A stretch of 64,000 nt of DNA from Candidatus Hydrogenedentota bacterium (GTDB lineage Bacteria > Hydrogenedentota > Hydrogenedentia > Hydrogenedentales > SLHB01), in assembly GCA_045863335.1 (NCBI GenBank), contig BTVY01000001.1:40571-104570 (forward strand). Direction: 5' to 3'. Shown here piece after piece: positions 12,619-64,000 of this stretch. A program made the position numbers and the translations under genes. The notes under the pieces were generated by a model, which searched no databases, was not told the origin of the DNA, and saw only the letters and a program-made list of their open reading frames with translations. How positions within the stretch are numbered: the first letter of the stretch is position 1; every line of letters begins with the position of its first letter.

Positions 12619-12784
12619 AAGAACATCCCCCTTGATCCCCCTTCAAAGGGGGAATTCCGCACAACGCTTCGCGTTGTGAATGGTAGGGGCCAAGCCGCTG
12701 GCTCGGCGCAGATTGCGTCGAATATCGCGGAGGCTATGGCTATACAGATTCCCCCTTTGAAGGGGGATCAAGGGGGATGTTCTT
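12619..12784 (+). repeat. Dispersed 37-bp-TIR element, copy 1 (166 bp)
   Basis: AAGAACATCCCCCTTGATCCCCCTTCAAAGGGGGAAT at 12619-12655, perfect inverse at 12748-12784; internal hairpin CACAACGC-TTC-GCGTTGTG at 12660-12678. Confidence 0.95.
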
Positions 12785-13793: not shown

Positions 13794-13960
13794 AAGAACA
13801 TCCCCCTTTATCCCCCTTCAAAGGGGGAATCTTGCGTATCCATAGCTGTCGATGTATGCGGCGCGACCTGCGCCGCCCCCCGGACTTACCCCCTCTCCGT
13901 CACAACGCGAAGCGTTGTGCGACATTCCCCCTTTGAAGGGGGATCAAGGGGGATGTTCTT
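13794..13960 (-). repeat. 37-bp-TIR element, copy 2 (167 bp, reverse orientation)
   Basis: Arms 13794-13830 (1 mismatch) and 13924-13960; hairpin CACAACGC-GAA-GCGTTGTG at 13901-13919. Confidence 0.95.
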
Positions 13961-39519: not shown

Positions 39520-39681
39520 AAGAACATCCCCCTCAATCCCCCTTCAAAGGGGGAATCGATCGCAACGCTACGCGTTGCGACTGCCACGCGACGTGCTACG
39601 TATAAGGCGAGGCCGACGTCACTCCCCTGAATCGGCGGCTGGGCTATCCCCCTTTGAAGGGGGATAGAGGGGGATGTACTT
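39520..39681 (+). repeat. 37-bp-TIR element, copy 3 (162 bp, more diverged)
   Basis: Arms 39520-39556 and 39645-39681 with several mismatches; hairpin TCGCAACGC-TAC-GCGTTGCGA at 39560-39580. Confidence 0.9.
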
Positions 39682-60020: not shown

Positions 60021-61355
60021 CTATGTCGTCAGGGCTGGCGTCTCAATGAGCGAACCCAGCGCAAAATCGCCCTTGAGTTCGTCGAGCCGCACGTCCCGCA
60101 CTTCGTTAACGAGTTCTTCCTTGGAACGAACCGCCACCCGGATGTAATTCCCGGTATAACCCGACCAGAACCCGTTTTCCTGGTGCTCGAAAAGCACTTC
60201 CACGGTTTGGCCCAGTCGCGCAGCGTAGAACGCCCGCCGCTTCGCGTCGCTCAAGCGGCGAACCGCCGCGCTCCGCCGGTTCATCGTTTGCGGGTCCACC
60301 TTCTCCGCGTACCGCGACGCGGGCGTGCCCTTCCGCTCCGAGTATTTGAAGACGTGCGCGTAGGCAATCGGACTGTCCTCGATCAAGCGGAAGGTCTCCA
60401 TGAAATCCTCGTCGGTCTCGCCAGGCGACCCTACGAGAACGTCGGTGCCAATACACAGTTCCGGCACGGAGGCATCCGCCAACTCGATAAACGCCATGAA
60501 CTCCTCGCGCGAATATCGCCGCTTCATCAATTCCAGCACCCGGTTCGAACCGGACTGCAACGGAATGTGCAGATACGGAACCAGCGCATGATGCGAAACC
60601 GCCATGCGCTCGAAAAGCCCTTCGGGGATCGTCGTCGGCTCGATGGAGCTGATGCGAATCCGCTCGACGCCGTCCAGCGCGTTCAAGCGATCAACCACAT
60701 CGACGATACTCTGTCCCTCGTACGCGTAGGTGCCCACGTTGACGCCCGTCAGCACGAGTTCCTTCGCGCCGCGGTCCAGCAACTGCCGCGCGTCGTCCAG
60801 CAGATTGTCCATAGCCCGGCTGCGCGCGCGGCCGCGGGCAAAGGGGATGATGCAAAAGCTGCACATGAAGTCGCAGCCGTCCTGAATCTTCAGGTTCGCG
60901 CGCCGCGTGACTTCTCCATTGCCAACGATCTCCATCGTGAAATCGTCGCGCTCGATCCGGTCCCGCACAATGAGCGGCGCGTCGTTCTTCCCCGCCGCCA
61001 CGTAGTCCAGCACGCTCAACTTTTCCTGATTGCCCACGATGAGATCGACGCCTTCGATCTCCGACAGCGCCTTGTACCCCATCTGCGAGTAGCACCCGAT
61101 CACCGCCGTGTACGCGCCGGGATTCTTTCGAATAAACGACCGTACCAGTTGCCGCGACTTTGCATCGGCCTCTCCGGTCACCGTGCAGGTATTGATGATG
61201 CCGAGGTCCGCCGGTTCGCCAAAGGGCACGACGTCGTACCCCTCGGCTTCGAGACGCTCGACGATGAGGCTCGATTCCGACTGGTTCAACCGGCAGCCAA
61301 GCGTGTGCACAGAAGCGCGCCGCGGCTGACCGCGATGTGGGGGACAATGACTCAT
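60021..61355 (-). CDS. mtaB: tRNA t6A37 methylthiotransferase MtaB
   Basis: TLGCRLNQSES, INTCTVT, radical SAM QDGCDFMCSFC, RISSIEP, TRAM domain. Confidence 0.92.
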   Translation of the reverse strand: MSHCPPHRGQPRRASVHTLGCRLNQSESSLIVERLEAEGYDVVPFGEPADLGIINTCTVTGEADAKSRQLVRSFIRKNPGAYTAVIGCYSQMGYKALSEIEGVDLIVGNQEKLSVLDYVAAGKNDAPLIVRDRIERDDFTMEIVGNGEVTRRANLKIQDGCDFMCSFCIIPFARGRARSRAMDNLLDDARQLLDRGAKELVLTGVNVGTYAYEGQSIVDVVDRLNALDGVERIRISSIEPTTIPEGLFERMAVSHHALVPYLHIPLQSGSNRVLELMKRRYSREEFMAFIELADASVPELCIGTDVLVGSPGETDEDFMETFRLIEDSPIAYAHVFKYSERKGTPASRYAEKVDPQTMNRRSAAVRRLSDAKRRAFYAARLGQTVEVLFEHQENGFWSGYTGNYIRVAVRSKEELVNEVRDVRLDELKGDFALGSLIETPALTT

Positions 61356-61440
61356 GGTTCGACAGGGATGCTCTATTGCCTGTATGCCCAGTACAACTCT
61401 CCGCGCTTAATGATACACTTCGAATGCCACTCATTTCCCG

Positions 61441-61608
61441 AAGAACATCCCCCTTGATCCCCCTTCAAAGGGGGAATGGCTTGTTCTTCGTTCTCAGAAG
61501 TTGCCGAGTGACTCTGACCTACGTGACGTGCACCCAGCATCTCTAATCCGCAACGCAAAGTGTTGCGATATTTTCCCCCTTTGAAGGGGGATCAAGGGGG
61601 ATGTTCCC
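61441..61608 (-). repeat. 37-bp-TIR element, copy 4 (168 bp, reverse orientation)
   Basis: Arms 61441-61477 and 61572-61608; hairpin CGCAACGC-AAA-GTGTTGCG at 61549-61567. Confidence 0.95.
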
Positions 61609-61640
61609 TAAGAGAATTGGATTGACTATCGAACGATCTA

Positions 61641-63122
61641 CTATTTCACAACGCCGGCCTCGCGCCGTATCCATTCCGACAGCATGCGCACGCCGTAGCC
61701 GGTCGCGTGCTTCGGGTTCAGGTACGGGATGTTCTTCCCGCCCCAGGCCGTACCCGCAATGTCGATATGCGCCCACGGCGTGTCGCCCACGAATTCCTTC
61801 AGGAAACAGCCACCGATGATTGTACCAGCTTCGCGGGCCGGACCGATATTGCTGAGGTCCCCGTGCGTCCCTTCGATGAGTTTGCAGTAGTCGTCCCACA
61901 GGGGAAGCCGCCAGATCCGCTCGCCCGTCGCGTCAGCCACGGCCTGCAACGACGCATACAGCGCGTCGTCCGTGCTCATTACACCCGCGGCGTAATGACC
62001 CAGCGCCACGATCGCCGCTCCCGTCAACGTGGCGAGGTCCACCATCTTGTCGGGCTGATAGTGCTCCACAGCATACGCCATGGCATCCGCGAGAATGAGC
62101 CGCCCTTCGGCGTCGGTGTTGTTCACTTCGATGGTCTTGCCGTTGTAGGCCCGCACGATGTCGCCCGGCTTCTGCGCGCGCGATCCGACCACGTTCTCCG
62201 CGGCCGGCGCCACGCACACCACGTTAATCGGCGGCCGCGTCTGCACGACGGTACGCATCGCGCCCAAGACCGCCGCCGCGCCGCACATGTCGAACTTCAT
62301 CTCTTCCATGCCCTGCGATGGCTTGATGCTCACCCCGCCGGTGTCAAAGGTGACCCCCTTGCCCACGATGGCCAGGGTCGGCGCTTCGGGTTCGCAGTGG
62401 TACGAGAGGATGATGATCTTCGCCGGTTCCGTCGCGCCGCGCGTCACGCCGAGCAGCGCGTTCATGCCGAGTTCCAGCATGCGGCCTTCGTCGATGAAAT
62501 CGTAGGTGCAGCACTCGTGATGTTCGGCGATGCTCCGCGCTTCGAAGGCCAGTTGCCCCGGCGTCAGATCGTTGGAGGATCGATTGCCCAGGTCCCGCGC
62601 CCAGTTCGCGTTTTCACAGACCGACACCGCGTGACGGCACCGCTCTTTCGCCGCGTCATCACCGCCGAGCAGGACAAACTGCGACACCGATACCGCCGGG
62701 TTCTCCTCCGACGGCTTCTTATATTTCTCAAACCGGTACTGGCCGAGCACGATGCCTTCGAGCAGCGCTTCACAGGGCCAACTGGAATTGGACAGATCGA
62801 CCGCACACATCTCTACGCGATGGCGGCCCAGCGCTTCGACCGCCTTGCCGCCCGCGCGCCGGAGCTGCTCCGCGTCAACGGCGTCCTTGCCAAGACCGAC
62901 GAGCACCACGCAGGCCAACCCATCCGCCGCCGCGGGAAATGCGAACACATCACCCGCCTTGCCCTTAAACAAACCGGACTCCAAGGCCGGCGTCGCCACC
63001 CGCGCATCCGCCTCGGACAACCGCGCCGAAACCGGCCCGCTATGCCCCTCCGCCACCGGGACCACCAGCGCCGCCGGCCCGTCCGCCGTCAACGTCTCCG
63101 CAATCTGTACTTCCAATTCCAT
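61641..63122 (-). CDS. pepA: Leucyl aminopeptidase (M17)
   Basis: VGKGVTFDTGG, MKFDMCGAA, NTDAEGRL.LAD, ATLTGA, HIDIAG. Confidence 0.95.
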   Translation of the reverse strand: MELEVQIAETLTADGPAALVVPVAEGHSGPVSARLSEADARVATPALESGLFKGKAGDVFAFPAAADGLACVVLVGLGKDAVDAEQLRRAGGKAVEALGRHRVEMCAVDLSNSSWPCEALLEGIVLGQYRFEKYKKPSEENPAVSVSQFVLLGGDDAAKERCRHAVSVCENANWARDLGNRSSNDLTPGQLAFEARSIAEHHECCTYDFIDEGRMLELGMNALLGVTRGATEPAKIIILSYHCEPEAPTLAIVGKGVTFDTGGVSIKPSQGMEEMKFDMCGAAAVLGAMRTVVQTRPPINVVCVAPAAENVVGSRAQKPGDIVRAYNGKTIEVNNTDAEGRLILADAMAYAVEHYQPDKMVDLATLTGAAIVALGHYAAGVMSTDDALYASLQAVADATGERIWRLPLWDDYCKLIEGTHGDLSNIGPAREAGTIIGGCFLKEFVGDTPWAHIDIAGTAWGGKNIPYLNPKHATGYGVRMLSEWIRREAGVVK

Positions 63123-63203
63123 TTCAGAGCCCCACCTCTCTTACTGGACCAACGATAATTCGCAATGATCGAAAAAGCTCCATGAGCGCTCGCACAGAGC
63201 TGA

Positions 63204-63370
63204 AGAAACATCCCCCTTGATCCCCCTTCAAAGGGGGAATTTGGATATCCTCATCTATGGTTAATTGCACGTGGATCTGGTCAAAAAATGGGTTGCCGCT
63301 CTGTCCAATCCACAACGCAACGCGTTGTTCCCAATTCCCCCTTTGAAGGGGGATCAAGGGGGATGTTCTT
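63204..63370 (-). repeat. 37-bp-TIR element, copy 5 (167 bp), downstream flank of the DUF559 gene
   Basis: Arms 63204-63240 and 63334-63370; hairpin ACAACGC-AAC-GCGTTGT at 63312-63328. Confidence 0.95.
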
Positions 63371-63387
63371 AAGTGCCAACCGATAGA

Positions 63388-63774
63388 TCATGTATCGGCA
63401 GCTTCAATATCTTCAAGAACACCCCTAATCTCGTCAATCACGCTTCTCACGTTGTCCAGCACGTGTGTATCACGAAAACGCATTACACGAATCCCGAGAG
63501 CATTCAGTCGCTTGTCTTTGCTCCCATCGCGAGCGTATGCGTCAAGCTCGTCATGGCTGGAACCGTCAATCTCAATTGCGAGCGCTCGTTCATGACAAAA
63601 GAAGTCGACGATGTATTCATCTATCGGAACCTGGCGGTGAAACTCGCAACCTAGCGATTTTCCCTTCAGCGAGCGCCAGAGTACGATCTCCGCGAAAGTA
63701 CTGTTCTTCCGCAACCCGCGCGCCAACGAGCGCAGCTTAGGGTCGTATACTACTATCGGATTGCGCTTCGACAT
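63388..63774 (-). CDS. Stand-alone DUF559 (Vsr-like, PD-(D/E)XK fold) endonuclease-domain protein
   Basis: ARGLRKNSTFAEIVLW, FHRQVPIDEYIVDFFC, IEIDGSSH, DKRLNALGIRVMRF; ATG at 63774 (ORF extends to a TTG at 63804). Confidence 0.9.
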   Translation of the reverse strand: MSKRNPIVVYDPKLRSLARGLRKNSTFAEIVLWRSLKGKSLGCEFHRQVPIDEYIVDFFCHERALAIEIDGSSHDELDAYARDGSKDKRLNALGIRVMRFRDTHVLDNVRSVIDEIRGVLEDIEAADT

Positions 63775-63829
63775 CAGCTCGCACGCATCCCGTCTCTTGA
63801 CCAAAAATCAAAGCCCTATCGAAATGCAA

Positions 63830-63997
63830 AACAACATCCCCCTTGATCCCCCTTCAAAGGGGGAATCAGTCGCAACGCGTTGCGTTGCGGTTCAGGGATG
63901 CTCGATGTTTTTTCGTAGGCCAACATCACTCGGCAACCACCCAAAACTACGATAAGCGCAATTCCCCCTTTGAAGGGGGATCAAGGGGGATGTTCTT
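63830..63997 (+). repeat. 37-bp-TIR element, copy 6 (168 bp), upstream flank of the DUF559 gene
   Basis: Arms 63830-63866 and 63961-63997; hairpin CGCAACGC-GTT-GCGTTGCG at 63871-63889. Confidence 0.95.
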
Positions 63998-64000
63998 AAG

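Follow-up and report, generated by a model that had tools for sequence, protein, structure and literature searches.

The locus and its genes

The stretch of DNA analysed here (the window, 64,000 nt) comes from a Candidatus Hydrogenedentota bacterium and corresponds to C1:40571-104570 of that organism's assembly (G000; 6.75 Mb, 105 contigs, 60% G+C). Near its right-hand end lies a lone gene for a DUF559 protein, predicted to be a Vsr-fold PD-(D/E)xK nuclease, between two copies of a dispersed repeat element; the relation between this gene and these repeats is the subject of this work. The gene occupies positions 63388-63774 on the minus strand and encodes 128 aa plus the stop codon (63388-63390); the start at the ATG at 63774 is consistent with the homologues' N-termini. 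Downstream of the gene, 17 nt past the stop codon, lies element copy 1 (~160 nt, 63204-63373, minus strand, i.e. reversed with respect to the family consensus from a 65-copy alignment). Upstream, at a distance of 55 nt from the ATG, lies element copy 2 (~160 nt, 63830-63997, plus strand, defined by arm matches and alignment). Each copy is bounded by two arms, at 63207-63240 and 63334-63367 in copy 1 (34 nt each) and at 63833-63866 and 63961-63994 in copy 2, and the arms of copy 1 are built from an ACAT head followed by C5, a linker, C5 again, a loop and finally G5. Folding places a subterminal hairpin of 7-8 bp on the gene side of copy 1 (~63310-63330), and that of copy 2 (~63869-63888) is on the gene side as well. 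The two copies are mutually inverted (61 nt, 63310-63370 versus 63830-63890, 89% complementary), and the internal CAACGC/GCGTTG hairpin of each faces the gene. The initial annotation of the window had described this arrangement of gene, distances, inverted copies and hairpins, and our analysis confirmed it.

The 55-nt spacer between the ATG and the head of copy 2 (63775-63829, minus strand) is, by its position, the presumed promoter region of the gene, and its counterpart in a related genome (G025) contains a TATATAAT-like box. A scan of 63150-64000 with the sigma-70 consensus returned no promoter and scored the arms as terminator-like; neither result was used. The DNA beyond copy 2 is unassembled, as copy 2 ends at a 100-N scaffold gap directly after the window (in the region G000:C1:104571-104868). 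After the gap we observed two tandem half-elements with a 102-nt period, and then folD on the minus strand. The window locus is a small repeat array, the true length of which is hidden by the gap.

Four further element copies, also defined by arm matches and alignment, bring the total in the window to six. One lies at 61441-61608 (minus strand) on the far side of pepA (61641-63122, minus strand, Pfam Peptidase_M17), and the others are at 12619-12784 (plus), 13794-13960 (minus) and 39520-39681 (plus), the last with a more diverged right arm. In all, 11 arm matches with ≤3 mismatches were found in the window, compared to 0 expected from 100 shuffles, and a twelfth arm (at 39645) has 5 mismatches. 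When ten open reading frames (ORFs) adjoining the four dispersed copies were tested, five had a Pfam match, all to housekeeping domains (SDR, PdxB-like, HlyD, MiaB-like and PepA) and none to a transposase, in agreement with the initial annotation.

DUF559 is, to our knowledge, a very large family to which no role has been assigned. The window protein matches its Pfam profile (PF04480) over positions 3-108 of 109 with 99.4 bits against a cut-off of 20.6 (E 1.3e-28), and in Pfam and NCBIfam together it has DUF559-type matches only, with no recognised transposase. A profile search of the PDB returned 3hrl (E 1.3e-19). For the AlphaFold2 model (pLDDT 88.8), 3hrl was again nearest in Foldseek (1.5e-7), followed by the homing endonuclease I-Bth0305I (3r3p, 1.9e-4) and Vsr (1vsr, 0.089); the weaker fold matches comprised PvuRts1I, the R2 retrotransposon endonuclease and Vsr. 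A survey of PD-(D/E)XK proteins places VSR, DUF559 and DUF2726 together in its group 58 (PMC3424549). In an alignment of 45 homologues D57, E68, G71 and H74 are invariant and D70 is conserved in ≥90%, and the catalytic residues of the predicted nuclease are probably among them. Matches in the PADLOC defence library were weak only (DpdF 9.6e-4, mREase_II 6.9e-3), and the PHROGs phage library gave one weak HNH family.

A polar element with structured arms is dispersed through the genome

Across G000 we counted 240 arm matches with ≤5 mismatches, representing 155 element loci; there are 81 pairs among the matches, and 65 of the pairs measure 150-170 nt. Alignment of the 65 full copies revealed a polar element with a sharply bounded head, (G)AAG-AACAT. 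In the consensus the arm reads C5, 5-nt linker, C5, 6-nt loop and G5, and is followed by a subterminal hairpin of 7-9 bp beside one arm only, ~65 nt that are nearly unconserved, and the inverse arm. Practically every one of the 65 copies has the hairpin, with several compensatory variants in its stem. An Rfam E-value scan of 61000-64000 gave two chance-level matches only, so that no Rfam family was assigned to the element. When an orthologous element copy was compared between genomes, the arms and hairpin were nearly unchanged while the interior had diverged by ~25-35% (counted by eye); arms and hairpins are under strong constraint. One inserted element (E1) had suggested longer imperfect terminal repeats beyond the heads, and we rejected these, as in the 60-nt flanks of 64 copies neither complementarity nor direct repetition exceeded that of mismatched pairs (0/64 beyond the 95th percentile). 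No repeat was found at the heads of the 64 copies.

G000 contains only two PF04480 matches. The second lies at C45:56057-56365 within a 372-aa ORF and is free of arms within 32 kb. The genome also has 11 matches to Y1_Tnp (PF01797), the domain of the REP-associated tyrosine transposases (RAYTs; REP, repetitive extragenic palindromic), nine of them strong, and none of these 11 genes is closer than 2,128 nt to an arm. The Y1_Tnp loci include C7:164314-165057, C16:55519-56088 and C62:581-664; several of the 11 have CCCCG-loop-GGGG palindromes of their own, at C7 in three copies with an 83-nt period, and look like a separate REP/RAYT-type system.

Gene and arms occur together in the same order

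We then searched 41 genomes of the same order and found short homologues of the nuclease (51-72% identity, open frames of 127-179 aa) in six of them: one each in G000, G001, G004, G005 and G025 and two in G034. Every one of the seven genes is flanked by arms, upstream and downstream, at ~100 nt or less. No arms accompany the long fused DUF559 ORFs that were examined (L007, L008 and L012). Long forms similar to that of G000 occur in G003, G005 and G013 (frames of 318-1321 aa), and a DUF559 match occurs within a 1772-aa frame in G015. The gene of G001 (L004, G001:C774:701-1081) contains an internal TAG and is probably a pseudogene. When genomes with at least nine matches to the arm pattern per strand were classed as arm-rich (a reversed-pattern control gave 0 in all 41 genomes), 13 of the 41 fell into this class, including all six with a short homologue, and the remaining 28 yielded no such gene.

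The orientation of the repeats varies between these genomes. The flanking copies of G004, G005 and G001 are direct repeats of each other, those of G005 and of G001 being similar along their whole length, and arm orientation also differs between lineages, so the gene-facing hairpins that the initial annotation stressed are not a general feature. In G034 the dispersed short element is 118 nt long with its heads directed inward; the heads are directed inward around the gene as well (L006 and L011), and the gene occupies the exact place of the 25-32-nt spacer of the short element. Arm stems in the relatives are 6-9 nt long, compared to 5 nt in G000.

The association extends to other phyla and arm type follows the protein

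A profile built from six proteins found at least 484 relatives among species-representative genomes. The best 80 were taken, of which 77 loci had enough flanking sequence; they come mostly from Bacteroidota, but also from Balneolales, Calditrichota, Scalindua (Planctomycetota), KSB1, Ignavibacteria and further Hydrogenedentota. Repeats shared between the upstream and downstream flanks scored ≥20 at 61 of the 77 loci (shuffle maximum 14.5). An ACAY-CCC head facing the gene was found upstream at 57 loci, downstream at 60, on both sides at 50 and on either side at 67, whereas a reversed-motif control at the same loci gave 6 and 2. At five Flavobacterium loci the heads are directed outward instead; in the two that we inspected (L087 and L098) 12-25 nt separate the arms from the gene. 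Across phyla the arms keep one layout: an ACAT or ACAC head, a C-run, a short linker or a covarying hairpin, a C-run, a loop and a G-run. Gene-bearing and short forms have this layout in common, with the heads outward in L087, L098 and the 160-nt elements of G000, and inward alike in the gene loci and 118-nt elements of G034. The expectation of the initial annotation that DUF559 homologues elsewhere would carry flanking repeats was thus borne out within the order and beyond it.

The number of arms differs widely among the carriers. In five Flavobacteriia genomes the arm pattern occurs 16, 3, 2, 2 and 5 times. The only two copies in G043 and in G044 are those flanking the gene, all 16 in Formosa (G041) lie within 2.1 kb of the gene in a local array with a period of ~100 nt, three of the five in G045 are at the gene, and one of the three in G042 is adjacent to it. 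Because arms in the Flavobacteriia occur almost only at the gene, arms and gene travel together even in genomes that lack a dispersed population. Arms per strand number 7 and 12 in a Scalindua genome, and 80/90 and 29/31 in two more Hydrogenedentota genomes, where some of them form tandem arrays with 48-, 103- and 108-nt periods. In one Flavobacterium genome (L115, G060:C1:183000-189000) three partial or whole gene copies and ~20 arm matches are found within 6 kb.

We also built a maximum-likelihood tree of 45 proteins, labelled 36 rows by their ACAC or ACAT heads, and left nine with no or mixed arms unlabelled. The head type changes twice on this tree, compared to a mean of 11.6 and a minimum of 5 changes in 200 shuffles; kinship inflates counts of this kind, but the cases that cross orders are independent of it. 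The ACAC clade (SH-aLRT 96, 15 rows) joins Flavobacteriaceae and Cytophagales with a Bacteroidales row and a Balneolales row, while other members of the Cytophagales, Bacteroidales and Balneolales have ACAT arms and lie elsewhere on the tree. Judged from these sequences, arm type follows the protein tree and not the host, a co-variation for which the initial annotation had proposed a test.

Cassette and short elements behave as insertions

Within one genus the nuclease gene occurs at three loci. G004 and G000 share the pepA/folD locus, where the neighbouring proteins are ~90% identical and the nuclease only 72%. In G005 the cassette is a ~960-nt insertion at a site that is uninterrupted in G000 (C43, ~42,495), and G001 has element-gene-element where G000 has a single element (C75:3908-4067). 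In the rib operon G005 is 92-94% identical to G000 at the nucleotide level and G004 only 77-78%, yet the nuclease of G005 is more distant (62-64%) than the nuclease of G004. The gene therefore does not follow its host. In Flavobacterium, the G044 cassette is a ~680-nt insertion with an 8-nt direct repeat at the overlapping stop and start codons of two genes, and the site is empty in five congeners; the similarity of Flavobacterium cassettes across species is limited to arm-gene-arm, ~498 nt.

The gene-less elements show the same behaviour. Of the four element loci that G000 has in the rib operon, G005 lacks three; one of these is a 275-nt insertion that includes a direct repeat of 15 nt and again falls on an overlapping stop/start. 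Empty and filled sites in close relatives, for which the initial annotation had proposed to look, were thus found for the cassette (G005, G044) and for the short element. The association of gene and repeats is specific, widespread and co-varying, and both forms behave as insertions.

The three best-defined insertions (L117:1066-1340, L054:~1359-2036 and L003:~1131-2089) lie exactly at overlapping stop/start codons of co-directional genes. They duplicate the stop/start junction, and both genes stay intact; such sites may reflect either a target preference or the survival of harmless insertions. A 139-nt single-arm element was also seen (L117:4250-4388, corresponding to G000:C28:84749-84887), and the orthologous site in G005 is empty. 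G000 has one full-length copy of it, while G003 and G005 together have at least 18 near-full-length copies of 84-95% identity; in the relatives this sub-family was recently amplified as a complete unit.

Public metagenome contigs covering window positions 63341-63860 (X1, X2 and X4) differ from the window by 0-1 positions in 515-517 nt of the nuclease piece, whereas the pepA pieces of X2 and X4 differ by 2-3.6%. These contigs hint that the cassette is younger than its carrier strains or has been exchanged between them. Contigs of four public runs end at the arms, and no contig spans the whole locus; read joints fall between repeat copies and are indistinguishable from cross-mapping, and contigs from RNA libraries are no proof of transcription. 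The repeats break assemblies and the gene can therefore be hidden from draft genomes.

The arms resemble the triplex motifs of E. coli, one of which adjoins ycjD

The BoxC/PIT/TMECO repeats were already described in E. coli in the 1990s. They are intrastrand triplex motifs, named BoxC at first, later PIT elements and then TM or TMECO (triplex motifs). Holder et al. (2015; PMC4666352) found them to be widespread, with 23 TMECO in E. coli MG1655, 3,610 in 262 proteobacterial genomes, and Microcystis and Neisseria rich in G/C triplex motifs. Both arms of every element copy have the three-block layout of these motifs (C-stem, loop, G-stem, loop, G-stem), a class that the initial annotation had missed. 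The stems in G000 (5 nt) are shorter than the minimum of 6 nt that the ITxF search of that paper required, and the arms are a short-stem form of the class. The paper further states that the E. coli motif forms a triplex in vitro as an isolated single strand, that rearrangement at E. coli TM loci exceeds that at control sites, with local variability, and that no transposase or integrase remnants were found near the motifs; their mechanism and origin are there left unanswered by the authors. The words 'ycjD' and 'endonuclease' are absent from the text of PMC4666352. Our literature search found no paper tying DUF559 to these repeats, although the supplementary tables of motif-adjacent genes in PMC4666352 may bear on the matter, and no paper contained any of the four 16-mers searched for.

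E. coli YcjD, a DUF559 protein, is 36% identical to the window protein over 105 aa. In K-12 the stop codon of ycjD lies inside a degenerate triplex motif and a full TMECO follows ~170 nt downstream; the expected number of motifs within 200 nt of a given gene is ~0.002 (our estimate from 23 motifs in 4.64 Mb). BoxC was presumably first noted in this very neighbourhood, the fabI (envM) region next to ycjD. Between triplex motifs, 106 nt downstream of the gene end, the last part of ycjD is present a second time (39 nt, 90% identical to the 3' end; region L124:421-565, MG1655 1351320-1351464), which resembles the remnant of a tandem event.

The distribution of ycjD among strains allowed a comparison with motif number. 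The gene occurs in phylogroups A, B1 and C and in sequence types ST69 and ST182, where it replaces eefRABCD, as reported in PMC12817139. MG1655 has 23 motifs and ycjD, while CFT073 has 2 motifs and no ycjD. A blastn search with ycjD and its motif against 5,426 complete genomes found the gene in 3,377; in an evenly spread sample of 60 rows, the 37 with ycjD had 17-34 motif places and the 23 without had 1-20. The dependence of motif number on ycjD is at most loose and the trend is confounded by phylogroup; a strict dependence was rejected, given the span of the ycjD-less rows. At four MG1655 motif loci that we compared, CFT073 lacks three motifs and has a degenerate copy with an 8-nt deletion at one, and one of its sites is cleanly empty opposite a ~94-nt MG1655 insertion between 8-nt direct repeats. 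O157 Sakai, which also lacks ycjD, keeps three of the four motifs nearly intact and the fourth in part.

A proposed selfish system run by a nuclease, and its alternatives

Our favoured reading is that the DUF559 gene and the repeats are one co-evolving selfish DNA system, similar to REP/RAYT and to insertion sequences (IS) with their miniature inverted-repeat transposable elements (MITEs) but run by a PD-(D/E)xK nuclease; we give it a probability of about 0.5. The autonomous form would be a cassette of ~0.5 kb, consisting of an arm, a short promoter region, the gene for a Vsr-fold nuclease of 125 aa and a second arm, each arm having ACAT or ACAC as its 4-nt head, then a C-run, a linker (in some cases with its own hairpin), another C-run, a loop and a G-run. 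The ~160-nt dispersed elements would be gene-less arm pairs served in trans by the single copy of the nuclease gene. The nuclease would recognise the folded or extruded arm plus its head and nick beside the arm; since the stems covary, the sequences point to a single-stranded or extruded arm as the likely substrate. Replication and repair by the host would then complete excision, copying or insertion, and variable-length target duplications and filler DNA would be the outcome of the repair. Recognition and cutting of the arms, movement of the cassette and of the gene-less doublets, and the part of repair are what we infer. More tentatively, and as somewhat less than an even bet, we propose that the short DUF559 proteins including YcjD are the missing enzymes of the BoxC/PIT/triplex-motif repeats, and that the whole would form a new class of mobile element, present in at least 5-6 phyla, with a Vsr-fold hydrolase as its sole protein, three-run structured ends and movement through nuclease-triggered host repair.

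Several observations weigh against this reading. A PD-(D/E)xK hydrolase alone is incapable of strand transfer. The direct repeats at the insertion sites vary in length (8, ~9, 15 and 8 nt), and unconserved DNA lies between the direct repeat and the arm, which no known transposition chemistry explains. In a donor search with two inserted elements of G000 (E1 and E3), interiors and extra flanks matched only themselves and the common hairpin, and these copies therefore show no sign of recent whole-element copy-and-paste. Seven of the 13 arm-rich genomes (G002, G003, G007, G010, G015, G026 and G033) are without a detected short DUF559 gene; a family search confirmed the absence in five of the seven, and some of the gene-less genomes are 98-100% complete, though the absences may partly reflect assemblies that break at repeats. 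The bracketing of the gene inside G000, which the initial annotation had used as evidence, is itself weak: none of the 91 gaps that separate neighbouring element loci (155 in total) on one contig is smaller than the DUF559 gap (465 nt), but there are four gaps of ≤700 nt against a Poisson expectation of 2.5 (22 against 10.3 for ≤3,000 nt), and housekeeping genes are bracketed too, with ribH, ribE, a yajQ-like gene and a pseudopilin-like gene in the other tight gaps. The two-part system proposed in that annotation on the model of RAYT and REP is strongly supported by the comparison between genomes (7/7 loci in the order, 67/77 across phyla, arms that co-vary with the protein tree), and only weakly by the bracketing in the window's own genome. 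In E. coli, ycjD-less O157 and O55 rows (including O157:H7) keep 14-15 motif places, while many other ycjD-less rows have 2-5. For the E. coli motifs, moreover, PMC4666352 reports neither a triplex that is stable in vivo nor activity as promoter or terminator.

The main rival is that the DUF559 protein maintains the repeats as a Vsr-like repair nickase specific for a sequence or structure, acting on mismatches or resolving hairpins or triplexes, so that arms are kept intact and tolerable while the repeats spread otherwise, by replication slippage or recombination. The fold family includes Vsr, a mismatch-specific nickase, and one gene copy per genome would suffice. This explanation accounts better than the favoured reading for the constraint on all copies, since arms that stay nearly unchanged beside interiors diverged by ~25-35% need a force acting on every copy and not only on sources; the decayed state of the motifs in the ycjD-less CFT073 (one of four loci degenerate, three without the motif) would fit as well, but the nearly intact motifs of the ycjD-less Sakai do not. 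It accounts worse for cassette mobility: a gene boxed in by arms in genomes that have no other arms, a cassette that moves between loci and a phylogeny at odds with that of the host are left unexplained. We consider maintenance unlikely as the main explanation, and it is not exclusive with a selfish system.

A homing-type selfish nuclease gene, for which the repeats are only landing pads or homology arms and are themselves spread by another means, is less probable again. I-Bth0305I as the second-best fold match, a gene that is usually single-copy, the element-gene-element of G001 opposite a single element in G000 and, as a hint from contigs only, the near-identity of the metagenome gene pieces beside diverged pepA would all suit such a gene. 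There is, however, no conserved target gene, intron or intein, the insertion sites differ between genomes, two of them (G005 and G044) were previously element-free, and Flavobacteriia carry the cassette without a repeat population.

Two further explanations appear very improbable. That triplex repeats are unstable hotspots which trap small genes, with DUF559 as a frequent passenger and no functional link, would agree with the rearranged TM loci of E. coli (PMC4666352) and with the other small genes bracketed in G000, but not with flanking arms at 67 of 77 loci across phyla, an arm type that tracks the protein tree and arms that sometimes occur only at the gene. Equally remote is a REPIN or MITE moved by a conventional enzyme encoded elsewhere (a RAYT/IS200-like Y1 or a DDE transposase), since the Y1 genes of G000, numerous as they are, stand apart from the arms and have different repeats of their own, so that no RAYT with the same termini was found among the 11, and no arm pair encloses 400-8000 nt anywhere in the assembly, where DDE families were not searched genome-wide and the draft may miss IS copies.

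Relation to known systems and significance

The system proposed here resembles REP/REPIN elements and their RAYTs in that short structured repeats, scattered between genes and often arranged as inverted doublets, also flank a nuclease gene that is mostly present once, and in that the type of repeat goes with the protein lineage. A conserved 4-nt tag stands beside the hairpin in both, GTAG/CGTC in REPs (PMC3733652) and ACAT/ACAC here. It differs in its enzyme, a Vsr-fold PD-(D/E)xK hydrolase instead of an HUH Y1 transposase (PF01797), and in its arms, which have three runs in the triplex layout and not a simple hairpin. RAYTs are described (10.1101/119735) as single-copy genes that no longer copy themselves, whereas the nuclease gene here is found at different loci within a genus and has a tree at variance with that of the host.

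The triplex motifs of E. coli (C-stem, loop, G-stem, loop, G-stem) are likewise intergenic, often in inverted pairs and variable between close strains, and one adjoins a DUF559 gene; the arms here differ from them in the 5-nt stems, the ACAY head and, in many lineages, a covarying hairpin in the second loop. With IS elements and their MITEs the system shares gene-bearing and gene-less forms with common terminal inverted repeats, insertions flanked by direct repeats and a copy number that varies greatly. In contrast to them it has no recognised transposase family, direct repeats of 8 to 15 nt, unconserved DNA before the arm, interiors that are unique while the arms are conserved, and heads that point either in or out. 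The protein shares its fold family with I-Bth0305I and Vsr, but its gene lies outside any intron or intein, with no conserved target gene, at three loci in one genus and another in Flavobacterium. A cytosine methyltransferase partner as in Vsr was not seen beside the window gene, though none was searched for.

The pairing gives a candidate function to both the DUF559 family and the triplex-motif repeats, and adds to the REP/RAYT-like systems one that is built on another nuclease fold. The question can be tested directly in E. coli K-12, which has ycjD and 23 TMECO motifs. As the same pairing is found across several phyla, including in E. coli, the enzyme may spread or maintain a family of repeats that has long been known but whose origin is unexplained.

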